Shown: positions 1 through 9,882 of the stretch, in pieces
Layout of the letters: each line of letters begins with the position of its first letter
Numbering within the stretch: position 1 is the first letter of the stretch
DNA from: a virus
Lineage: Duplodnaviria; Heunggongvirae; Uroviricota; Caudoviricetes
Virus record (IMG/VR): IMGVR_UViG_2802429253_000011
DNA length: 12,094 nucleotides
Direction: 5' to 3' (one strand)
Position numbers and translations under genes: made by a program
The notes under the pieces: generated by a model
The model's input: the letters and a program-made list of their open reading frames with translations, nothing else
Database searches by the model: none
Told to the model about the DNA's origin: nothing

Positions 1-78
1 CCCCAGAGAAGTCAGTGGGTTACGCAGAGAATCGTAACGGGATACCAGATCAAGGGCCTGTCCAATGTGCATAAAAAA

Positions 79-106
79 ATCCGGAAACGAGTGAGCGTTT
101 CCGGAT
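79..106 (-). terminator. Intrinsic terminator hairpin downstream of mug
   Basis: Perfect 11-bp inverted repeat ATCCGGAAACG (79-89) / CGTTTCCGGAT (96-106) with 6-nt loop; on the minus strand it is followed by a 6-T run (complement of A73-A78). Lies 70 bp past the mug stop. Confidence 0.6.
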
Positions 107-176
107 TCTTACACAGCCACTGGATCGGTCAACTGATCCTTAACTGATCGGCATTACACCTTTCTGGTGGCGTTTT

Positions 177-683
177 TTATCGCCCACGCACTACCAGTGC
201 CTGATCCAACTCCCGATATGCCTCAACCAGTTTCTCCAGAGAAACTCGACTTAAACCGCTGGGATTCGGCAATACCCAAATCTGCGTCGAACCAATGGTC
301 AGCGTTTGTTTCCCCCACTGCACGCCTCGCTGACTGAATCCCTGTTCATACGCCTGCTTACCCAGAATCGCCAACGCCTGCGGCTGATAATTCTCAATTT
401 TTTCAATTAGCTTGCGCCCACCTGCGTGCAATTCCTGCTTTGACACTTCATTAGCCTGCACCGTTGGCCTGTCAACCAGTTTGGTGACGCCACAACGATA
501 ATCCAGCAGATGCTGCGCTTCCTGCGGCTTCAACTGACGGTCGGTAAACCCGGCCTGATAAATCACCTTCCAGAAGCGATTCGCCGGATGGGCAAACGGA
601 AAACCAGACTCCGCGGAAGAAAGACCCGGATTGATGCCACAAAACACCACACGCAATCCTGGCGCAAGAATATCGTCAACCAT
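177..683 (-). CDS. mug: G/U mismatch-specific DNA glycosylase Mug (uracil-DNA glycosylase family 2), 168 aa
   Basis: Translation from the internal Met ([23 protein letters not shown]...[14 protein letters not shown]...LVVRGR) matches E. coli Mug almost residue for residue as recalled. ATG at 681-683 is preceded by AGGAG; stop TAA at 177-179. The track ORF 177..782 adds a 33-aa upstream extension that runs into the tRNA promoter region and is not supported. Confidence 0.9.
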
Positions 684-769
684 ATTAACTCCTGAACAAC
701 ACAACCCGCAGGAAGTATAACGAATTGAAAACACATTGTTTATAAAAACAGCAGCCGCGCGGTAATGGC

Positions 770-798
770 TGGATTGCGACACGGAGTTACTTTATAAT
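770..798 (+). promoter_or_regulatory. Probable sigma70 promoter of the tRNA gene
   Basis: TATAAT at 793-798 followed by a GC-rich discriminator (CCGC) about 10 bp before the mature tRNA 5' end at 809; -35 region is weak. Confidence 0.35.
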
Positions 799-808
799 CC
801 GCTACCAT

Positions 809-884
809 GGCCCCTTAGCTCAGTGGTTAGAGCAGGCGACTCATAATCGCTTGGTCGTTGGTTCAAACCCAACAGGGGCCACCA
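809..884 (+). tRNA. ileX: tRNA-Ile2 (anticodon CAU, lysidine-type; ileX/ileY class), 76 nt including encoded CCA
   Basis: Cloverleaf readable by eye: acceptor GGCCCCT/AGGGGCC, D-arm GCTC-AGTGGTTAG-GAGC, anticodon loop CTCATAA (CAT at 842-844), T-arm GTTGG-TTCAAAC-CCAAC, 3' ACCA. Overall sequence resembles E. coli ileX rather than Met/fMet tRNAs. The position next to mug matches the K-12 ileX locus as recalled. Confidence 0.85.
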
Positions 885-892
885 TATCTATC

Positions 893-929
893 AAGGGGTT
901 ACGTTAACAGCGTGACCCCTTCGTTTTTT
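893..929 (+). terminator. Intrinsic terminator of the tRNA gene
   Basis: Stem AAGGGGTTAC (893-902) / GTGACCCCTT (912-921) with one mismatch, 9-nt loop, followed by CGTTTTTT (922-929). Confidence 0.6.
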
Positions 930-1425
930 CTAGGATACCTATAGGATACCGTGACAGAGTATAAGCAGGTATAAAAACAACAAGTTACGCAACATCATAC
1001 CTGTCATGAAACTTTAACTATCCGACATGATAGCTGGTCGATAATCACGGATAATCCGTTATGTGGATCCCCATATCGGCATCAGGCCCACCAGCGTGAA
1101 GCGTTTTTCATTTTTCGCGGGTATAAAAAATCGATGGGGCTGGCAGTCCGGAAGACGTCAGGGTACAGAGATTTGACCCGCCCCTCCCTGTGCATGGGCA
1201 CAATAAGTAACCGAAGGCGGAATTCCGCCCTCGGTACTCACATATGAGAAACGATATTTCTTCCTCTGATAACCAAAATATGGGTATCACAAGTAACCCC
1301 CAAAATCTGGGTGTTGCTCTTACTACCCAAACTACGGGTAGTTTCCGTAATTTCATGGTCGAGTTGCAGATCTGCAACTCACCCACCAGCCAACGCAATT
1401 TTGCGTTATCGGGAATATCAGCAAG

Positions 1426-1713
1426 TTACCGCCGCAGCCGTTCCGGCTTCTTCCACTGGTAAGTATTTTTCGCGCTCTCCCTCCGTTGTTGAGAACGGCG
1501 ACGGTATGCCAGCAACTCAAGAACTCTGGTTCGTATGTTGCGCATATCCACGCCGTTAAGCTCAATACCGTCACGGCGCATCACCTCAGCCACCACACGC
1601 GCGTAATTTTCAGCGGTGACTGTATCCGGCTGCGCGGCCTGTTCGTCAGCCAACTGGCTGATTCCACCAGCACAGCGGATTAATCGCAGTATTTCAGATT
1701 CGGTCATTATCAT
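1426..1713 (-). CDS. Hypothetical 95-aa protein, translationally coupled to the TerS-like gene
   Basis: Its ATG (1711-1713) overlaps the TGA stop (1710-1712) of the upstream gene in an ATGA arrangement. No family recognised. The basic C-terminal tail may be read-through of non-coding DNA, so it could be a 5' fragment. Confidence 0.4.
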   Translation of the reverse strand: MIMTESEILRLIRCAGGISQLADEQAAQPDTVTAENYARVVAEVMRRDGIELNGVDMRNIRTRVLELLAYRRRSQQRRESAKNTYQWKKPERLRR

Positions 1714-2195
1714 GCCTGTTTTGCGACCTCATTCACTACGTCATTTTTTACCATCCGGCTGATAATCTGATTACACAAATCGTCAATAATTGACTGCACT
1801 CTGTTTACTGCCATCGGTTTAAGCCCGGCATCACGTGCCAGAATATTGGGGAGTTTTGCCAGTTCCTCGCTTACGATTTCCCCCCATATAGCCATCTCTT
1901 TTCGCACATCATCGGCGGGTATGAGTTGCGCCGTTTCCTGTTCGAACCTGAGGCGCTCACGTTCGGACTGATACCAGGCCTTACGGTCATGTGGCTCCAT
2001 TTCTTCCAGTGATGCCGGAACGGGAAGATCAAGAAAACAGGTCAGAATGTCAGTCACCCGATAGAGTTTCAGCTTGTCATGCCCTCCGGCTGGCTGGATG
2101 TTTTTCAACCTTGCCGCCGCAGTCTGACGACATATTCCCGCTATCGCCGCCAGTTGATTAATGTTCAGCATCAGATTTTTCAGTTCTCGATCCAT
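1710..2195 (-). CDS. Terminase small subunit-like protein (lambda Nu1-type N-terminal HTH), about 161 aa
   Basis: N-terminal LNINQLAAIAGICRQTAAARLKNIQPAGGHDKLKLYRVTDIL parallels the lambda Nu1 DNA-binding motif (KKQLADIFGASIRTIQNWQEQGMPV...EVLYDSAAVIKWY). Start chosen at the internal ATG 2193-2195 with GGAG 5 nt upstream; the track ORF runs to 2282 without an RBS. Confidence 0.55.
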   Translation of the reverse strand: MDRELKNLMLNINQLAAIAGICRQTAAARLKNIQPAGGHDKLKLYRVTDILTCFLDLPVPASLEEMEPHDRKAWYQSERERLRFEQETAQLIPADDVRKEMAIWGEIVSEELAKLPNILARDAGLKPMAVNRVQSIIDDLCNQIISRMVKNDVVNEVAKQA

Positions 2196-2348
2196 ACCCG
2201 CTCCAGAATGTTTTAAACATGCATCTTGCGAACAACTTTCAGAAGAGGTCAAAAAATGCGCTATATGTTGAGCATAAAACAAGCAAAATTAACATACTAA
2301 AAATAAAAATACTTAAAATTCAATATCATATAAAGATGATGATGACGA

Positions 2349-2421
2349 ATGAAAATGCAAAAACTAGCCTTTTTCCGCGCCGCTCCCGCCCCGTGGCAGG
2401 CCACCTCACCGGGAGGACCCA
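2349..2421. repeat. Copy A of a 73-bp direct repeat (partner at 5699-5771)
   Basis: 69 of 73 positions identical to copy B, no indels, same orientation. GC-rich core with dyad CTCCCG...CGGGAG. Lies between a terminator and the TerS-like operon. Confidence 0.8.
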
Positions 2422-2466
2422 CCCAAAAAAGGCGACTGTCACTATTGTTTATGCTCCATGAGCGAC

Positions 2467-2488
2467 AAAACCGCCCGCAGGCGGTTTT
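2467..2488 (-). terminator. Intrinsic terminator (bidirectional) after the gpI-like gene
   Basis: Perfect hairpin AAAACCGCC-CGCA-GGCGGTTTT, 18 bp beyond the gpI-like stop (2506-2508), T-runs on both sides. Confidence 0.6.
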
Positions 2489-2505
2489 ACATAAAACGTT
2501 TTGTA

Positions 2506-3177
2506 TCAGCGACCAATCACCACAATCTGGCCGCCATCCCCTTCGTCTGCCGTGCTGATCTCCTGAGAGACCACCCGCGACCCCACGCGCATTTCACCGT
2601 ACAGAACGGGCAGAACATTGCCCTGGGCAACCATGTTATCCAGTGAGGAGAAATAGGTGTTCTGTTTGCCGTTATCTGTACTTGCTGCCGTGGGCGTCCT
2701 GGCTTTCGGTGCCAGCATCTGCGCCACACCACCAAGTACCATACTGGCACCGAGAGAAAACAGGATACCGGTCATACCACCGGCCCCAATGGCTGCCCCC
2801 CATGCTGTAAGGGTGGCTCCGGCGGTAAAGAATGATCCGGCAATGGCGGCTGCTCCCAGGACAATCTGGAATACACCACCTGACTTGGCCCCGGCGACTC
2901 TGGGAACAATATGAATCACAGCGCCATCAGGCAGAGTCTCATGTAACTGCGCCGTTAATCCGGACGTGCTGACATCCTGCCCGGCAATCCGTACCTGATA
3001 CCAGCCGTCGCTCAGTTTCTGACGAAACGCCGGGAGCTGTGTGGCCAGCGCCCGGATGGCTTCGGCCCCCGTTTTCACACGCAGATCGATGCGGCGGCCA
3101 AATCGTTGTAAATCCCCGTAAAGGCAGATGCGTGCCATGCCTGGTGACGCCAGAGGGAGTGTGTGCGTCGCTGCCAT
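2506..3177 (-). CDS. Lambda tail-tip assembly protein I (gpI) homolog, 223 aa
   Basis: Translation MAATHTLPLASPGMARICLYGDLQRFGRRIDLRVKTGAEAIRALATQLPAFRQ... with a Gly/Ala-rich hydrophobic C-terminal half matches lambda gpI as recalled, nearly identical over the full length. ATG at 3175-3177, TGA at 2506-2508. Confidence 0.7.
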   Translation of the reverse strand: MAATHTLPLASPGMARICLYGDLQRFGRRIDLRVKTGAEAIRALATQLPAFRQKLSDGWYQVRIAGQDVSTSGLTAQLHETLPDGAVIHIVPRVAGAKSGGVFQIVLGAAAIAGSFFTAGATLTAWGAAIGAGGMTGILFSLGASMVLGGVAQMLAPKARTPTAASTDNGKQNTYFSSLDNMVAQGNVLPVLYGEMRVGSRVVSQEISTADEGDGGQIVVIGR

Positions 3178-3266
3178 TTGTCGGTATACCTCTCTCGTTT
3201 GCTCAGTTGTTCAGGAATATGGTGCGGCAGCTCGCCGCCCCACGTGTTCAAAGTACCGCCTTGTTG

Positions 3267-5180
3267 TCATGCTCCATTCGATTTCAGCAATCCACGATAA
3301 TCGAGGGCCGCGACACCTGCATCTATGCGCACCTTCCAGGCGACACCATCAACAGTAAAGCCCACCTGCTCCTCAAGATATGGCGTATCCATACCATCAA
3401 GATAAGCGACTTCTATTGTGTCCATCCCCTTAGCTGCGGCTACATACCATTCCTTGCTATTGGCCTTATCAAGACGTGGCTCAACAATTACTTCTGCCAT
3501 ATCTTTCACCACGTTAATGATGCCGGGGTTCTGATTGATAGTGCCCTCATCACCAACCGGAAAGACTGATGACGATGACAGAATGGCGCGACGCGCGGCA
3601 GATTCCAGCGCGGCAGGGACCAGAACAAAAGCAGGGGTAATATTCAGTGAGTCGCCGTTAGCATCCTCCTGGAGGCGCATCAGCTTACGGGCTTCATCAA
3701 GCCCCACCATGTCCATATCCTTCGCAATAAGATTTTTATGATCGGCATGGAATAACGCTTTACCATCCGTAAACTTGCCGTTGCTGGTTAACAGGAGATA
3801 AACCAGATTGCCAACTGTTCTGGCGGCTGCGCGTCCCATCGCCATGGGGATTGTAGTTAACTGGGTCAGGTCATCGTTGATAATGGCCTGACGGGTAACG
3901 GAAAAAATATTCCCGTACGTGGCCAGCGCAATAGGTACACCTTTATCGCTGGTGGTGATGTATTTATATTCCGCACCTTCCGGTACTTTATCCAGCTTTG
4001 AAAAACCATTCAGACCAACGCGCTTTGCTTCATGAAAGTTTGAAAGCGAACCGGTACGCGTCCATTTCTGGAACGTTTCGCCGCTGTCCTGCCAGCCTTT
4101 CAGTACAGATTTTTCAGCCCCACCAGCCAGAATATGAGAAAAATCACTGCTGCTGTGTGTAAAAGCCGCATTAACAACCTGCGAGCGATTAATAAAACCA
4201 CTCACAGTGATACCACGATCAACCAGTGATGCCTGGGCCATTTCAAAAAGGCTCATCATCGCGTAAGGGTTGCCTCGTTCAGGGCGTTCATACCCAAGAC
4301 GGGAATAAAGCCCCTGACGAATTGCATCACCTGTTATGTTTCCGTTTCCGGCATAGATATGAGGCGGGGTATTTTTATTGGATGGCGTGGACTCGCGCCC
4401 CAGCTCGTTCAACAGCTTTTCACGGGCCATTTCCGGTGTACATGATGCATCTTCCAGACACGCCATTTTGATCCCGTCGTAACGACTGCCGAACAGGCTA
4501 AACACTTCACTTATTCCATTGATGCGTTTCTGTTCATTACCAGCAATATTTGCCGCTCCCTGTGGCGGTGTAATCATTCCTTTAATGGTTTCCGGCATAT
4601 GTAAAAAATCTCCTGTACGTTTCGATTCAATTCGCGCCATTGCTCTGACGGATGGCAACAATTCATCAGCAAAACCGTGCTTAAGGCATTCTTTCCCATC
4701 CATCCAGGTTTCATCCTCCAGCATGGCGGTAATTTCCTGTGCTGATTTGCCCGTTTTTCTGGCATAAGCAGGGATTAACACGGTTTCCACCTTATCCAGC
4801 AAATCAGCATAATCACGCATATCGCCAGCATTTCCGCCAGAGATCCCCCACGGTTTATGGATCATCATCATGGCGTTCTCCGGCATCACTACACGATCGC
4901 CAGCCATTGCGACCACCGAAGCCATTGAAGCCGCAACACCATCGATATAAACCGTAATGTCTGCCGGATGATTCCGTAGCAGGTTATAGATGGCGATGCC
5001 TTCAAACACATCACCACCTGGTGAATGGATCCTCAGATTGATATGTGAAACATCGCCAAGGGCTTTCAGGTCTTCCGCGAACTGCTTTGCAGTAACACCG
5101 AAGCCGCCAATCTCCTCATAGATAGATATATCCGCCGCTCCGCGAACATCCGCCGCCTTAATGGTGTACCAGCGATTCAT
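3267..5180 (-). CDS. Fusion of prohead protease (ClpP/S14-like) and HK97-fold major capsid protein, 637 aa
   Basis: N-terminus carries ClpP-like motifs (INLRIHSPGGDVFEGIAIYNLL, DGVAASMASVVAMAGD, MMMIHKPWG); the C-terminal ~400 aa has the composition and length of an HK97-family capsid protein. Start ATG 5178-5180 overlaps the upstream stop (TAATG). Confidence 0.8.
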   Translation of the reverse strand: MNRWYTIKAADVRGAADISIYEEIGGFGVTAKQFAEDLKALGDVSHINLRIHSPGGDVFEGIAIYNLLRNHPADITVYIDGVAASMASVVAMAGDRVVMPENAMMMIHKPWGISGGNAGDMRDYADLLDKVETVLIPAYARKTGKSAQEITAMLEDETWMDGKECLKHGFADELLPSVRAMARIESKRTGDFLHMPETIKGMITPPQGAANIAGNEQKRINGISEVFSLFGSRYDGIKMACLEDASCTPEMAREKLLNELGRESTPSNKNTPPHIYAGNGNITGDAIRQGLYSRLGYERPERGNPYAMMSLFEMAQASLVDRGITVSGFINRSQVVNAAFTHSSSDFSHILAGGAEKSVLKGWQDSGETFQKWTRTGSLSNFHEAKRVGLNGFSKLDKVPEGAEYKYITTSDKGVPIALATYGNIFSVTRQAIINDDLTQLTTIPMAMGRAAARTVGNLVYLLLTSNGKFTDGKALFHADHKNLIAKDMDMVGLDEARKLMRLQEDANGDSLNITPAFVLVPAALESAARRAILSSSSVFPVGDEGTINQNPGIINVVKDMAEVIVEPRLDKANSKEWYVAAAKGMDTIEVAYLDGMDTPYLEEQVGFTVDGVAWKVRIDAGVAALDYRGLLKSNGA

Positions 5181-5386
5181 TATTCCCCCACCGATGCAAA
5201 ACCATTCTGATTAAGCCAGGTGTTTACGGCATGTCTGACAATCTGCGCCACACCTGGTAATGGTTTGTCAGGATGATGATTTATATGGTCGATCCTGTAC
5301 TGCTTAAGGCGCATAACGGTCTGCGCATCCAGATGAACGGAACCACCCCTGATATCGCCCGTGTTCAGGTCATTAATACAACTCAC
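5180..5386 (-). CDS. Hypothetical 68-aa protein, first gene of the capsid operon
   Basis: GTG start at 5384-5386 preceded by a strong RBS (AAGAGGAAG); stop overlaps the capsid start. Function unknown. Confidence 0.5.
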   Translation of the reverse strand: MSCINDLNTGDIRGGSVHLDAQTVMRLKQYRIDHINHHPDKPLPGVAQIVRHAVNTWLNQNGFASVGE

Positions 5387-5487
5387 AGTAACTTCCTCTT
5401 ACTGACTAAACTGTGCACATTATTGATCGATAAAAGTGGTAGATAAACATATTTCTATCATAAAAACAGATTAATGAGATTCAGACA

Positions 5488-5931: not shown

Positions 5932-6154
5932 CTGTTCACCTTTTGATATTTTCTCTTTTAATTCATAATGTTAAGGGGTGAACAGTTTCACAAAAACTAT
6001 TCACCAACTGTTCACCACTGTTCACCCTTGAAGCTCAATAAACAATCAAAAAGGTGAACAGTGAATAGTTTGGTGAACAGTTCATAAATAACTGTTCACC
6101 CTATAATATACTGATATAAAAGATATTTATGACAGGGTGAACAGTGGTGAACAG
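5932..6154. repeat. Iteron array, candidate replication origin (P4 ori/crr-like)
   Basis: Eleven copies of CTGTTCACC or its complement GGTGAACAG (two of them variants, CTATTCACC and GTGAATAG) at 5932, 5977, 5997, 6008, 6018, 6053, 6061, 6072, 6092, 6136 and 6146, in both orientations, interleaved with AT-rich tracts (5941-5974, 6101-6134). Ends 20 bp from the primase stop. TGTTCACC is the type I iteron bound by P4 alpha protein. Confidence 0.75.
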
Positions 6155-6173: not shown

Positions 6174-7985
6174 TTAGCTATCGTCATTAGTGACCGATAC
6201 ACATGATGGCATCCAGTCTTCTGATTCCTCCGTCAGTGTCACGTTTGAACGCAAACCGTGCTTCGTTTTCCGTTTCATATACTCCCTGCCATATTCCGCC
6301 ATTGCCCCCGGCATATCTTTACCGAAGCGCGTCAGTGTTACAGGTTTACCAAACCCATGTGCCCTCATATAAGCCAGATAGGCATGATAGAGATACCTGC
6401 GTGGGCTGAATGGCACAATTTCAGCATTACCCACTAACAGGCCATCACACATTACCGACGCCATGAGATAGCCGCAGAAGTCCACCAGCGAATCCCCCTC
6501 TCGCTTTATCGCCAGTGCTTCTTCAGATTTCTGCTGCTCATATAACAGGCGTCTGGCTTCGTCCTGGTCAGCAAACCGTGTAAGCAGATGGCGAATCACT
6601 ACCGCCAGCTCACCTTCTATTTTTTCCGCCAGCATTGGATCGCGTTCGTTCTCCGGTACAACTTCCGAAAAATTGAATATCACCCGACGACGTGAGATCC
6701 CCCCGCTGCGGTCACTGAATGACATGGCGTTATTGTTAACCGCCAGCACTACTGCCGGAATACGCGTTGAGTAGGGGGCTTTGTGTTTCGGGTCAATTGC
6801 CACCTTGTCACCGCCTGTAATAGCCTTAATCCCTGCCCCATCACCAGCGTAGCGGGTCATATCCGGCATGATAATCAGCGAAAAGCCAACCACTAACGCG
6901 CGTTCCCTTGCATCTTCCAGCGCCTTCATGCTTGCCGATACTGTGTTGGCCTTACCCGCCAGCATGGTGCAAATCTCCGCCATCACGCTTTTACCACTTC
7001 CCCCTGGACCTGTTACCTCAATGAATAACTGCCAGTCGTACCGGTTCGCCAGCACCATGAATAATGCAGCCAGTACGCGATCCGCCTTGCGGTCATTCTC
7101 AGCCACCGAACGGCGTAACCACTTCCAGAAATTCGGCGCATGTGTTGCCAGCGTTTCCCCCTCTGCTGGTGGGCTGAAAGGTAATTCACTGGCAATTAAC
7201 AACCAGTCGTTTTTGTTATGCTCCCGAAAATTACCTGTTCTGGTATCAAATACCCCGTTACTGAATCCAATCAGGTTACGGGCTGTATTCCCCATAACAG
7301 GCAAACTTAACTTCATGGTATCGACCGCCGATTTAATGGCGTTCTGCGAATAGCTGATCTCCGCATCAATGAAAATCTGTGCCATAGCTCGCTGTAATTC
7401 TTTATCCTGTACTGGCTCCCATACAACGCCGTTGTAATGGTGAACAGTATCAGAGTCGGCATGAATCGCCAGTTCACCGCCATAATGTGCCAGGAGAACT
7501 TCGCCGCGTTGACTTGCTCCCATCTGGTTAAGCGCCAGTGATGAAGCGTTATCGTCTTTTACCCGCTCTTTTTTCTTTACAGGCAGTTCAACTACCTTTT
7601 TCTTTTCCGCCTGCTCTGCCCGTTCACGTTCCAGATATTCGCGCCAGTTCTCCCGTTTCTGGCTGTGCATTCCTTCAGGATAATAATCAGCATCCCTGAC
7701 ACCGGCCGCTGCCAGTTTCTGCCCGATGGTATTAACAAGCCCCGGACGCAATAACCCCGCCTGATAGAGACGCACACGATAGCGTCCGTCCGGTACGATT
7801 TGCAGGTTGTCCAGTTCGGCAAGTTGTTGCTCTCCAAGCCAGACAGGAGGCACGTTATCGCCAGCCAGTCGCCCGTCCTGTTCCTGCCACTGCTTCGCAT
7901 GTGCCCACGCATCACTACCCGCAAAAATGATGACTTCCGTCATTTTGTCACGTGGCTGGTGTTTTAAATTTGGCGCTTTTTTCAT
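6174..7985 (-). CDS. P4 alpha-type primase/helicase (N-terminal primase region, SF3 helicase with Walker A GPGGSGKS)
   Basis: Long ORF with VTGPGGSGKS, followed by residues typical of the phage/plasmid primase P4-family C-terminal domain. Start assigned to ATG 7983-7985, which overlaps the upstream stop (ATGA); track start is a GTG at 8000. Iterons lie directly downstream. Confidence 0.8.
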   Translation of the reverse strand: MKKAPNLKHQPRDKMTEVIIFAGSDAWAHAKQWQEQDGRLAGDNVPPVWLGEQQLAELDNLQIVPDGRYRVRLYQAGLLRPGLVNTIGQKLAAAGVRDADYYPEGMHSQKRENWREYLERERAEQAEKKKVVELPVKKKERVKDDNASSLALNQMGASQRGEVLLAHYGGELAIHADSDTVHHYNGVVWEPVQDKELQRAMAQIFIDAEISYSQNAIKSAVDTMKLSLPVMGNTARNLIGFSNGVFDTRTGNFREHNKNDWLLIASELPFSPPAEGETLATHAPNFWKWLRRSVAENDRKADRVLAALFMVLANRYDWQLFIEVTGPGGSGKSVMAEICTMLAGKANTVSASMKALEDARERALVVGFSLIIMPDMTRYAGDGAGIKAITGGDKVAIDPKHKAPYSTRIPAVVLAVNNNAMSFSDRSGGISRRRVIFNFSEVVPENERDPMLAEKIEGELAVVIRHLLTRFADQDEARRLLYEQQKSEEALAIKREGDSLVDFCGYLMASVMCDGLLVGNAEIVPFSPRRYLYHAYLAYMRAHGFGKPVTLTRFGKDMPGAMAEYGREYMKRKTKHGLRSNVTLTEESEDWMPSCVSVTNDDS

Positions 7986-8281
7986 TTCTGCTCTCTCCAC
8001 GCGGCAATCATGTTTTTCAGTTCCTGTAGTTTTTTATCCACATTCACACGTGACACATGGTTATTTCTGGAAAGCGGGATTTCCCGCCTGAATCTGCTAA
8101 TAAAGATCTCCACGTTCAGCGAACTATGAAATGAATAGCCATCACGAATAAAATACACACGGTCAAACATTATCGATTTTACTGTTACTCTGTTGCCGTT
8201 CTTATCCCGATAAATAGCGCCGGGGATAATTTTGGGATGTGCATAACCGCTGGCAGTCAAGCCAGATAAATACGTTCTCAT
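7982..8281 (-). CDS. Hypothetical 99-aa protein, coupled to the primase
   Basis: ATG 8279-8281; stop overlaps the primase start. No family recognised. Confidence 0.5.
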   Translation of the reverse strand: MRTYLSGLTASGYAHPKIIPGAIYRDKNGNRVTVKSIMFDRVYFIRDGYSFHSSLNVEIFISRFRREIPLSRNNHVSRVNVDKKLQELKNMIAAWREQK

Positions 8282-8287
8282 GATTAT

Positions 8288-8608
8288 TTATCCCCGATTT
8301 GAATCAGTATTCGCTTTCTTTATGGCATTTAATGCATCTGTGGCATTTTCAATGGTGCACCGTAACGAAATATCAAAATGTCCAAGCATTGCCAGTAACA
8401 AACCGATATTACCCATATCAATGCGCATGGCCTTTTCGTCATAGTCCTCATTTTCTGACGCATGCCACATCAGGCTACCAATTGACGCAACGGCCATTGA
8501 TATATTGTCAGTCGCCACATCCGCAGCGGAATAAACCTTTTTAGCAATATCATGCTCACAGTTAAAATGCGGATTAATCAGGTACTGGTAATTTGACATA
8601 TCAGGCAT
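8288..8608 (-). CDS. Hypothetical 106-aa protein
   Basis: ATG 8606-8608 overlaps the upstream stop (ATGCCTGA); RBS GGGGG. Acidic protein, no family recognised. Confidence 0.5.
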   Translation of the reverse strand: MPDMSNYQYLINPHFNCEHDIAKKVYSAADVATDNISMAVASIGSLMWHASENEDYDEKAMRIDMGNIGLLLAMLGHFDISLRCTIENATDALNAIKKANTDSNRG

Positions 8609-8804
8609 GGCACACCCCCTGACGAATACGGGCGGCGAATACCATCACGCAGCCAGCCGGGGATTGCTGGCGTGCTTCCTGTTCGCTGGTGGCCACGATG
8701 GTAATCACACGCGGTTTTGCGGCGCTCAGGGCGATAAAACGCCAGGCGAATTTATTCAGGTTGTGCGAATCCCGCCCTTGCGGGTGTATGGTATGATTTC
8801 TCAT
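8601..8804 (-). CDS. Small Icd-like protein (P4-family host cell division inhibitor-like), 67 aa
   Basis: MRNHTIHPQGRDSHNLNKFAWRFIALSAAKPRVITIVATSEQEARQQSPAGCVMVFAARIRQGVCHA; ATG 8802-8804 with GAGG 6 nt upstream. The track merges it into a 334-aa ORF whose upstream part is antisense to real plus-strand genes. Family call is from memory of Icd-like annotations. Confidence 0.5.
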   Translation of the reverse strand: MRNHTIHPQGRDSHNLNKFAWRFIALSAAKPRVITIVATSEQEARQQSPAGCVMVFAARIRQGVCHA

Positions 8805-8842
8805 AGCTACCTCGATACTCTCGTTATCGTTGGTGGTTAGAA

Positions 8843-8887
8843 GCCCTGCGAGTGGTAACGACACTTGCGGGGCTTTGTTTTTTGTTG
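8843..8887 (+). terminator. Plus-strand intrinsic terminator or attenuator in the divergent control region
   Basis: 12-bp stem (8843-8854 / 8862-8873) with two G-U wobble pairs that only pair in plus-strand RNA, 7-nt loop, then UUUGUUUUUUGUUG. Confidence 0.5.
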
Positions 8888-8899
8888 CACTTACTGTTA

Positions 8900-8950
8900 A
8901 TGTACGTACGTAATATTGATGATAATAGGAGTTACGTACGTACATGTCAA
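8900..8950 (-). promoter_or_regulatory. Leftward promoter (TTGACA-17-TATTAT) overlapped by a pair of 14-bp perfect inverted repeats (operator)
   Basis: On the minus strand, -35 TTGACA is at 8950-8945 and -10 TATTAT at 8927-8922 with a 17-bp spacer. ATGTACGTACGTAA (8900-8913) and TTACGTACGTACAT (8932-8945) are exact reverse complements and flank the RBS and start codon of the RHH gene. Confidence 0.6.
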
Positions 8951-9135
8951 CATTAAAGCGGGATAAATCACCACGCGGCGAGGGATGGTCGCCGACATTC
9001 CAGATACGAATTAGCAAAGAACTACGCCAGCAAGTAAACGAGGCAGCAACCGCCGATGGCCTAACCCTCGGCAATTGGTTTAAAGAATTAGCTCGTGCCG
9101 AACTAAAGCGACGCGGCATTGAACCTAAAGGCTGA
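8944..9135 (+). CDS. Ribbon-helix-helix (Arc/CopG-like) DNA-binding protein, 63 aa
   Basis: FQIRISKELRQQVNEAATADGLTLGNWFKELARAEL has the strand-helix-helix pattern of RHH regulators. AGGAG at 8927-8931; start codon sits inside the right operator arm. Confidence 0.55.
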   Translation: MSTLKRDKSPRGEGWSPTFQIRISKELRQQVNEAATADGLTLGNWFKELARAELKRRGIEPKG

Positions 9136-9138
9136 TGT

Positions 9139-9264
9139 ATGACTGAAAAGCAGACCGATAACAAACTTTCTCTACCAGAGAATAAACCAGCAGGCTTCTT
9201 ACCAAGAAAAATCCTTGATGAGATCAAACGCCGCCAGCGGCGCAAGGCCAAAGAGCAGGAGTAA
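9139..9264 (+). CDS. Possible 41-aa basic peptide, or 5' part of an interrupted gene
   Basis: ATG 4 nt after the RHH stop; ends at TAA 9262-9264; same frame as the next ORF. Confidence 0.2.
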   Translation: MTEKQTDNKLSLPENKPAGFLPRKILDEIKRRQRRKAKEQE

Positions 9265-9321
9265 CCATCACCAGCGCCGTGGTGCGGTGAACTGTGGCGC
9301 ACAGGGTTACAGGTATCTACG

Positions 9322-9501
9322 ATGACTGACAAATCATTAAAGAAATTATCCTCATCCAAGAAAAAACAACGCAAAAATGCGGTAAACGAACATGAACCGG
9401 AGAGATTCGCACCATGTGCGTTTATCCTTGAGAAGTACCTTAAAGAGTATTCTAGGAAAATACGCTCATTGCAGGCATGGCAGCGAATCGAGCCAGACTG
9501 A
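9322..9501 (+). CDS. Possible 59-aa Lys-rich protein, or 3' part of an interrupted gene
   Basis: ATG 9322-9324 to TGA 9499-9501; in frame with 9139-9264 and no other stops between them; followed by a terminator. Confidence 0.2.
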   Translation: MTDKSLKKLSSSKKKQRKNAVNEHEPERFAPCAFILEKYLKEYSRKIRSLQAWQRIEPD

Positions 9502-9566
9502 TAGCATTGCCCACCAGCCAACAACCTGGTATTCTGGATATGCTCAAGTTTAGTGTTATGCCACTG

Positions 9567-9594
9567 GCGGCCCTCTGCGGTCGCCTTTGTTTTA
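9567..9594 (+). terminator. Intrinsic terminator of the rightward small operon
   Basis: Stem GGCGGCC (9567-9573) / GGTCGCC (9579-9585) with one G-U pair, 5-nt loop, then UUUGUUUUAUG. Confidence 0.5.
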
Positions 9595-9611
9595 TGTGCC
9601 ATCACTCCCCC

Positions 9612-9821
9612 TTACACCGTCTGCGTTCTGCGAGTGGATGCAAGATAAGCATCGAGATCAGTGCGCATATACAGCACTTTGCGCCCCAGCTTATGGAAAG
9701 GGATTTTTACCTTGCCAGTACAGGCCCAGTTCGCCAGCGTTTGATTGTTAACGCCAAGGTAGGCAGCAGCTTCAGCACGTGTAAGGCGGTCAGTTGATAA
9801 ATCAGATTTCTTTAAATTCAT
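9612..9821 (-). CDS. AlpA/Xis-family helix-turn-helix DNA-binding protein, about 69 aa
   Basis: LTRAEAAAYLGVNNQTLANWACTGKVKIPFHKLGRKVLYMRTDLDAYL fits the small AlpA/excisionase-type HTH family. ATG 9819-9821 chosen; an alternative GTG at 9830 gives 72 aa. Confidence 0.7.
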   Translation of the reverse strand: MNLKKSDLSTDRLTRAEAAAYLGVNNQTLANWACTGKVKIPFHKLGRKVLYMRTDLDAYLASTRRTQTV

Positions 9822-9882
9822 ATCTATCACCGTGTACTTCTAAGTAACAACGGTGATAAATATCAATCAATGGGTATTTTGT

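Follow-up and report, generated by a model that had tools for sequence, protein, structure and literature searches.

What keeps the replication genes of a Gram-negative phage satellite silent while the element sits in its host chromosome? AlpA has been described as an activator in the PICIs of E. coli; whether a repressor exists as well was left open, and the difference of these elements from Gram-positive PICIs was called 'a mystery' (Fillol-Salom et al. 2018, PMC6092414). The stretch of DNA analysed here, 12,094 nucleotides long and hereafter called the window, raises the same question at a single intergenic region. A first-pass annotation, made from the letters alone, had proposed that a near-consensus leftward promoter, embedded in a pair of inverted repeats at 8900–8950, forms a compact switch through which a small ribbon-helix-helix (RHH) protein represses both the replication operon and its own synthesis.

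The window represents an E. coli phage satellite of the PICI type, located beside tRNA-Met. It carries the gene set of the Gram-negative type (tRNA-Met, integrase, HTH_17/AlpA-like gene, D5-type primase, protease–capsid fusion and DUF1441), and its regulatory region has homologues in EcCICFT073 and EcCIEDL933. At the left end, a uracil-DNA glycosylase-family gene is followed by tRNA-Met (809–884), and DUF1441 and a lambda tail-I-like gene lie between tRNA-Met and a ClpP-protease/capsid fusion (3267–5180). The leftward operon occupies the minus strand and consists of an Icd-like gene in first position (8601–8804; NCBIfam phage_ICD_like, E = 1.9e-18), orf106 (8288–8608), DUF4222 (7982–8281) and a D5-type primase/helicase (6174–8000). 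The RefSeq annotation of an identical locus agrees with the Icd-like gene. Annotations of its product conflict: the protein is a 'transcriptional repressor' in PHROGs (phrog_6196, E = 1e-42) and carries a cell-division inhibitor Icd-like domain in NCBIfam. On the 3′ side of the primase gene, positions 5976–6136 hold a dense cluster of inverted and direct repeats of 10 nt or more around GTGAACAG, which is likely to be a replication origin with iterons.

Rightward of the operon lies a small cassette on the plus strand, opened by the gene for the RHH protein (8944–9135; Shine–Dalgarno sequence AGGAG at 8927–8931). Its 3′ neighbour orf41 (9139–9264) is a probable remnant: the last 14 residues of its product (EIKRRQRRKAKEQE) recur identically at the C-terminus of the YlcI/YnfO-type protein in EcCICFT073 and in a further locus, L003, and because of this shared end orf41 is probably the leftover 3′ end of a replaced allele, marking a recombination joint. 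The conserved small gene orf59 follows (9322–9501; phrog_21027, E = 5e-30), with homologues in L004, L005 and L087, and a plus-strand terminator-like hairpin with a T run (9566–9595) closes the cassette just before the stop codon of the AlpA-like HTH_17 gene (9612–9830, minus strand). The AlpA-like gene is thus upstream of the leftward operon and on the same strand as it; its transcripts would run head-on against the RHH cassette. Beyond it on that strand lie orf241 and a tyrosine integrase gene that is cut by the window end. A minus-strand open reading frame of 334 aa that spans 8601–9605 was considered as the real gene and rejected for three reasons: as an antisense frame, it has its third codon positions in line with those of the RHH frame; 35 of 67 homologues interrupt it (the antisense frame over the RHH gene is open in just 32 of the 67); and it has no family match apart from its Icd-like end.

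The region from 8500 to 9400 is present at ≥99.8% identity in four complete genomes. Part of it is matched by 1,406 of 5,426 genomes and just seven cover at least 80% of it; this wide partial and rare full coverage indicates that the RHH/operator segment is exchanged as a module. The same region gave no matches in a DNA search of a phage database, and a protein search with the Icd-like protein returned one satellite-sized record, P4 not being among the matches. In strain A36 (L001), the regulatory region is 99.9% identical to that of the window, and the structural module consists of a separate major capsid gene, a head decoration protein gene and a small terminase gene, as against the protease–capsid fusion, lambda tail-I-like gene and DUF1441 of the window. 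Comparison of this module with positions 1–5400 of the window shows that the satellites are mosaic.

The proposed switch region (8880–8960) reads TTTTGTTGCACTTACTGTTA ATGTACGTACGTAA TATTGATGATAATAGGAG TTACGTACGTACAT GTCAACATTAAAG. Within it, a repeat finder located two predicted operator arms, O-left (ATGTACGTACGTAA, 8900–8913) and O-right (TTACGTACGTACAT, 8932–8945), which are complementary at 14 of 14 positions and are separated by 18 nt. No other perfect 14-nt inverted repeat with a loop of ≤40 nt occurs in the 12-kb window, and 200 first-order Markov simulations of the window produced none. Each arm contains the self-complementary core GTACGTAC (8902–8909 in O-left, 8936–8943 in O-right) inside a 10-bp palindrome, TACGTACGTA. 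The two copies of this palindrome also form a direct repeat 30 nt apart; the arm pair is a direct and an inverted repeat at once because the core is self-complementary. Elsewhere in the window, the core has no occurrence.

The arms are interleaved with a leftward promoter on the minus strand, TTGACA-17-TATTAT, which a promoter scan scored at 11 of 12 consensus matches. Its −35 hexamer (TTGACA, 8945–8950) overlaps codons 1–3 of the RHH gene (ATG TCA Axx), and its −10 hexamer (TATTAT, 8922–8927) lies between the arms, giving a predicted start near 8915. This is the sole promoter match of at least 10/12 in the window, and Markov simulations lead one to expect about 0.25 matches of at least 11/12 per window. 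Given that predicted start, O-left lies at about +3 to +16, and O-right lies at about −17 to −30, filling the spacer between the −35 and −10 hexamers. The 63-codon RHH reading frame starts within O-right, which contains the A and the T of its ATG (8944) and has base 8945 in common with the −35 hexamer. The perfect inverted repeat and the near-consensus promoter of the first-pass annotation therefore hold as written, each occurring just once in the window and neither being expected by chance, and the positions that it gave to the arms, one near the predicted transcription start and one in the spacer, with the right arm at the RHH start codon, were likewise borne out.

The gene that starts within the right arm encodes a protein of 63 aa, the proposed repressor, in which a β-strand (PTFQIRI, residues 17–23) and two helices (25–37 and 42–56) follow a 16-residue N-terminal extension. 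In a profile search of the PDB with a profile of 20 homologues, the best solved relative was Arc of phage P22 (E = 0.035). PHROGs matched the protein to 'Arc-like repressor' (PHROG 228, E = 1.8e-4), Pfam HicB reached 17.6 bits (cut-off 21; only the C-terminal DNA-binding part of the model matched) and NCBIfam YlcI_YnfO_N reached 20.3 bits (cut-off 30); all of the RHH-family sequence matches lie below curated cut-offs, and these weak matches agree with one another. An AlphaFold2 monomer model contains both helices, with pLDDT of 81–88 over residues 21–60, and the strand is not formed in it. The top Foldseek matches of this model are all Arc, with a target-normalized TM-score of 0.85, an r.m.s.d. 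of 1.4 Å over 42 columns and weak E-values. From the profiles and the model taken together, the 63-aa protein is predicted to have the strand–helix–helix fold of an Arc-like ribbon-helix-helix protein. Alignment of SPTFQIRI with MPQFNLRW of Arc places T18, Q20 and R22 opposite Arc Q9, N11 and R13, which make the base contacts in the Arc–operator structure (PDB 1par). Among homologues of the window protein, the residue aligned with Arc R13 is invariant and those aligned with Q9 and N11 vary.

Conservation of the promoter and the arms was assessed by a scan of one genome per species, which yielded 80 loci from Morganella, Yersinia, Xenorhabdus, Erwinia, Pectobacterium, Brenneria, Pantoea, Citrobacter and others, or 84 regions when E. 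coli variants are included. Two arms with ≤1 mismatch, 30–36 bp apart and with the right arm abutting the start codon, are present in 60 of the 84 regions, and the matched pair is kept while the intervening DNA drifts. Among 56 distinct upstream regions, 54 have a perfect minus-strand TTGACA at the same place, 45 have a TAnnnT hexamer 17–18 nt from the −35 and 55 have a total promoter score of at least 9/12. In the 54 TTGACA regions, the Ser2 codon is TCA and the third codon always begins with A, though it encodes T, R, I or M, which points to a constraint on the DNA and not on the protein. Seven loci have one arm only, and L074 has mismatched arms. A Pantoea subfamily, with AFQLRI as the strand in 12 loci and AFQIRI in one, has no arms. 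Members of the Pantoea group (L064, L066, L069, L071–L073, L076, L078, L079, L081 and L082) have RHH homologues that begin MPKTKD, carry no TTGACA at the start codon and place the RHH gene about 35 nt 3′ of a hairpin; this arrangement suggests that the gene is co-transcribed with the upstream plus-strand unit. Immediately beyond the left arm (8893–8899 in the window), a TGnTA motif is kept across specificity classes; it might belong to the operator or serve as the −35 of an RHH promoter.

This conservation bears on another account of the repeats, in which the RHH protein would be the antitoxin of a small toxin–antitoxin pair, with orf59 or orf41 as the toxin, and the arms would serve its autoregulation, their overlap with the leftward promoter being incidental. 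Many homologues are named 'HicB family antitoxin' in RefSeq, in keeping with the weak Pfam HicB match; RHH antitoxins typically autoregulate at palindromes, and orf59 is conserved beside the RHH gene. However, Pfam and NCBIfam match nothing in the cassette to HicA or another toxin, PADLOC gives no defence-system match, the protein, with just 63 aa, lacks the N-terminal domain of HicB, and orf41 looks like a recombination remnant. Moreover, 54–55 of the 56 regions keep the −35 and −10 hexamers of the leftward promoter in register with the arms, which is not what an incidental overlap would give. We therefore consider the antitoxin account improbable.

If the RHH protein reads the arms, their sequence should follow its contact residues, and eight β-strand variants were found, each with its own arm sequence and with both arms changing together. 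The strand of the window, PTFQIRI, goes with GTACGTAC (in full GTACGTAC(C/G)) in about 45 distinct proteins, from E. coli to Pantoea. PPFHMRI goes with GTGTACAC (both arms GTGTACACC), PAFQIRM with GTGTGTAC (left GTGTGTACC, right GGTACACAC), PIFSVRL with GTATGGAC (left GTATGGACC, right GGTCCATAC) and PMFNVRI with GTATAGAC (left GTATAGACC, right GGTCTATAC). The remaining variants are PQFKMRI with GTGGCCAC (both arms GTGGCCACC), PMLPIRI with GTATATGC (left GTATATGCC, right GGCATATAC) and PQFRMRI, the strand of EDL933, with GTGACCAC (AGGTGACCAC twice). One exception, L026, combines a PTFQIRI strand with GTATGTAC arms. Among protein pairs that are 50–60% identical outside the strand, the arm is shared (≤1 mismatch) in 79% of pairs with the same contact residues and in 10% of pairs with different ones, a statistic that ignores phylogeny; the same contrast is seen in every protein-identity band. 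Part of this covariation could be shared descent, because the gene and its sites are adjacent. The comparative evidence is consistent with alternate residues of the β-strand reading the DNA bases. Because the promoter, the arm pair and the covariation with contact residues are all conserved, binding of the RHH protein to the arms with repression of the icd-like/primase operon is the best reading of the locus, and as a prediction from comparative sequence analysis it is strongly supported.

The same architecture was found in the satellites EcCIEDL933 and EcCICFT073, which are the type capsid-forming PICI and the type Gram-negative PICI, respectively. EcCIEDL933, from E. coli O157:H7 EDL933, encodes an intact and unannotated RHH homologue (L087, 6891–7082, plus strand, TTG start) and has its own site pair and the same leader hairpin; RefSeq places at this locus a 247-aa 'hypothetical protein' (6782–7525) on the strand opposite the RHH homologue, an antisense frame of the kind that the window has at 8601–9605. 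In EcCICFT073 (L089, 7474–7870), a YlcI/YnfO-family gene occupies the RHH position, divergent from the icd-like operon, and two copies of the near-palindrome AGGTGTGGCCCAC, 23 bp apart, bracket the −10 of a TTGACG-18-TATAGT promoter. Like the cassette of the window, the YlcI/YnfO cassette is flanked by alpA and the icd-like operon and shares the leader hairpin; its gene, however, begins about 60 bp farther away from the promoter than the RHH gene does. The two proteins have a weak profile likeness (NCBIfam E = 4e-4, hhalign E = 0.007) and no detectable pairwise similarity. On these profiles, the YlcI/YnfO family may be remotely related to RHH proteins.

The operon leader carries a second conserved unit, on the plus strand. 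A predicted promoter with the −10 element TATGAT (8792–8797) and a TGn just upstream lies inside the first Icd-like codons, on the other strand. All 25 of the diverse loci compared have the T, A and T of this plus-strand TAnnnT without variation, despite their different first genes, which are Icd-like, SymE-like or of unknown families. These first genes of different families have a common N-terminal coding stretch that holds the plus-strand −10, and in L061, L080 and L077 (Citrobacter and Enterobacter) the first leftward gene is SymE-like (NCBIfam PRK13605, E = 4e-15) behind the same leader. The predicted transcript, an antisense RNA of ~81 nt (8805–8885, plus strand), would fold into two stem-loops and a U tail (−38.7 kcal/mol, z = −5.75). 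Its 5′ stem-loop would cover the Icd-like Shine–Dalgarno sequence to within one base of the start codon (8802–8804), its 3′ end is a 15-bp terminator hairpin (8840–8876) with the U tail at 8877–8885, and the whole would be fully complementary to the Icd-like leader and ribosome-binding site.

Nearly all loci have a counterpart of the hairpin at 8840–8876 in this position, and the stems differ greatly among them. In an ungapped alignment of 18 equal-length versions, read against the stated structure, pairing holds in 93.7% of cells, and compensatory changes occur in 13 of the 14 pairs; none of 500 shuffles reached the observed value, and controls in which the structure was slid gave about 40%. 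RNAalifold predicted no structure on a MAFFT alignment of the leaders, because stems of different length were misaligned in it. All 37 versions of the hairpin are more stable as plus-strand RNA, by a mean of 6.6 kcal/mol, and G–U pairs number 97 on the plus strand versus 13 on the minus strand. A plus-strand T run follows the hairpin in 23 of the 37 versions and is absent from 14. In Rfam searches there was no C4 or CI match, at E up to 10 on 8760–8960 and up to 1 on the whole window, and the plus-strand matches to ctRNA families were weak, far below gathering scores. By this absence of an Rfam match, the predicted RNA is unrelated to the CI RNA of P4 and the C4 RNA of P1. An antisense RNA made from its own plus-strand promoter is likely to be a second control layer, as judged from these alignments, and would pair with the operon leader and ribosome-binding site.

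The presence of an upstream plus-strand promoter gives some room to the idea that the arms themselves act as RNA, with a 14-bp hairpin in a rightward transcript begun upstream of 8900 hiding the RHH start codon and controlling its translation, so that matched changes of the arms would be RNA covariation and not operator evolution. Complementarity of the arms has been kept through many sequence changes, a separate RHH promoter was not found, and read-through of the hairpin at 8840–8876 is conceivable in the 14 of 37 versions without a T run. However, a stem need not track the β-strand residues of the RHH protein; most arms are palindromic in a fixed GT....AC frame, which suits a dimer and is pointless for a stem; loci with a single arm exist; the EcCICFT073 copies are direct repeats; and the leftward transcript would include one arm only. 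The chance that the arms work in this way is, in our judgement, very small. Weaker still is the view in which the AlpA-like protein or a host factor binds the repeats and the RHH protein has another target: among regulators of E. coli PICIs, AlpA alone has been demonstrated by experiment (PMC6092414), and the conserved TGnTA lies just outside the left arm, but the arms change with the RHH contact residues, the core is present only at the arms within the element, and L005 has an AlpA-like protein 100% identical to that of the window and yet GGTGTACACC arms instead of GTACGTAC, which argues against AlpA as the binder, so that this view deserves hardly any credence.

We therefore return to repression by the RHH protein, and consider it probable that an RHH repressor on two promoter sites silences the operon, with the antisense RNA as a likely second layer. 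RHH dimers would bind two matched sites 32–34 bp apart, centre to centre, one of which fills the −35/−10 spacer while the other lies just downstream of the leftward start. A dimer on each site would block the binding of polymerase or its escape, and the operon of icd-like, orf106, DUF4222 and primase/helicase genes would stay silent for as long as the satellite remains integrated. Dimer–dimer contact of the Arc kind cannot span the distance between the sites, so independent binding, or cooperativity by other means, is assumed. The same binding should limit synthesis of the RHH protein, because any σ70 promoter for its gene must overlap an arm: the distance from the hairpin end (8885) to the Shine–Dalgarno sequence (8927) is 42 bp, and the left arm lies inside it. 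A search of the related loci for a conserved rightward σ70 promoter of the RHH gene gave just weak matches at scattered positions. We infer, in sum, the steps of binding, repression, autoregulation, antisense control and the lifting of the block by a helper phage.

Of the switch first proposed for this region, the repression of the operon is thus upheld by the conserved promoter, the matched arms and the covariation with contact residues, whereas autoregulation is argued from geometry, with no clear rightward promoter. The accompanying description of the locus as protein-based immunity where P4 uses an RNA probably places the emphasis wrongly, given the conserved plus-strand antisense unit over the operon leader.

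Several known systems resemble parts of this arrangement. Arc of P22 is a small RHH protein and the best match in both sequence and fold, and the residues aligned with its Q9 and N11 vary with the site. In the immI region of P22, a strong promoter overlaps a divergent one and has the Arc operator between its −35 and −10. However, Arc has one 21-bp operator bound by two touching dimers, whereas the window has two separate sites that bracket the −10; Arc is encoded by the first gene of its own repressed operon, whereas the RHH gene is divergent from its target; and the window protein has its N-terminal extension and sequence similarities that all fall below family cut-offs. In the plasmid pMV158/pLS1, the RHH repressor CopG acts at the repB promoter and an antisense RNA, RNAII, covers the translation start region. 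The window resembles this dual control of replication genes by protein and RNA, its own RNA being predicted. By contrast, copG is co-transcribed with repB and the RHH gene is divergent, no sequence relationship exists, and pMV158 is a rolling-circle plasmid whereas the window is a phage satellite.

Among satellites, Stl of the SaPIs is derepressed by a helper-phage protein. In the layout of SaPI Stl and of Rpr in Gram-positive PICIs, the regulator is divergent from the excision/replication operon and its sites are intergenic (PMC6092414); the window shares the divergent regulator and the sites in the intergenic region of a satellite. Stl is, however, a larger helix-turn-helix protein encoded in the same direction as int, whereas int and alpA of the window lie on the strand of the repressed operon. 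The likeness to P4 CI and P1 C4 is that a left (replication) operon is controlled through its leader, with an icd-type gene after the leader as in immI of P1. The CI and C4 RNAs are processed from the sense transcript; the window RNA, unlike them, would be a separate antisense transcript with a protein repressor alongside.

The mechanism is thus of a well-known kind, and the novelty lies in its context, its family, the geometry of two sites and the probable RNA partner. In a 2026 survey, HicB and YlcI/YnfO count among the accessory or toxin–antitoxin genes of PICIs and P4-like elements, with the label 'prophage-associated' accessory genes for YlcI/YnfO (PMC13612085), and the word repressor does not occur in the cf-PICI preprint. 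The literature searched, mostly outside subscription journals, contained neither an RHH repressor nor an antisense RNA in PICIs. The RHH protein is accordingly presented as a candidate repressor for Gram-negative satellites that is absent from that literature, a candidacy based on comparative genomics.

It is possible, though we lean somewhat against it, that Gram-negative PICIs, cf-PICIs and some P4-like satellites share a hitherto unnoticed master switch, made of an Arc-like RHH repressor and a cis-antisense RNA over the leader of the replication operon and flipped by helper-induced transcription that AlpA drives. In such a switch, the AlpA-driven transcription induced by the helper would run head-on through the RHH cassette. 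If this were true, the switch would correspond in function to SaPI Stl and P4 CI, and it would comprise at least eight DNA-specificity ('immunity') classes, to which the YlcI/YnfO-type allele would add another. The one-to-one table of strand residues and operators also provides a small natural data set for the study of DNA reading by RHH proteins. A repressor/operator pair with readable classes would offer a way into the silence of satellites, into their mutual immunity and into the override of that silence by AlpA-dependent induction.
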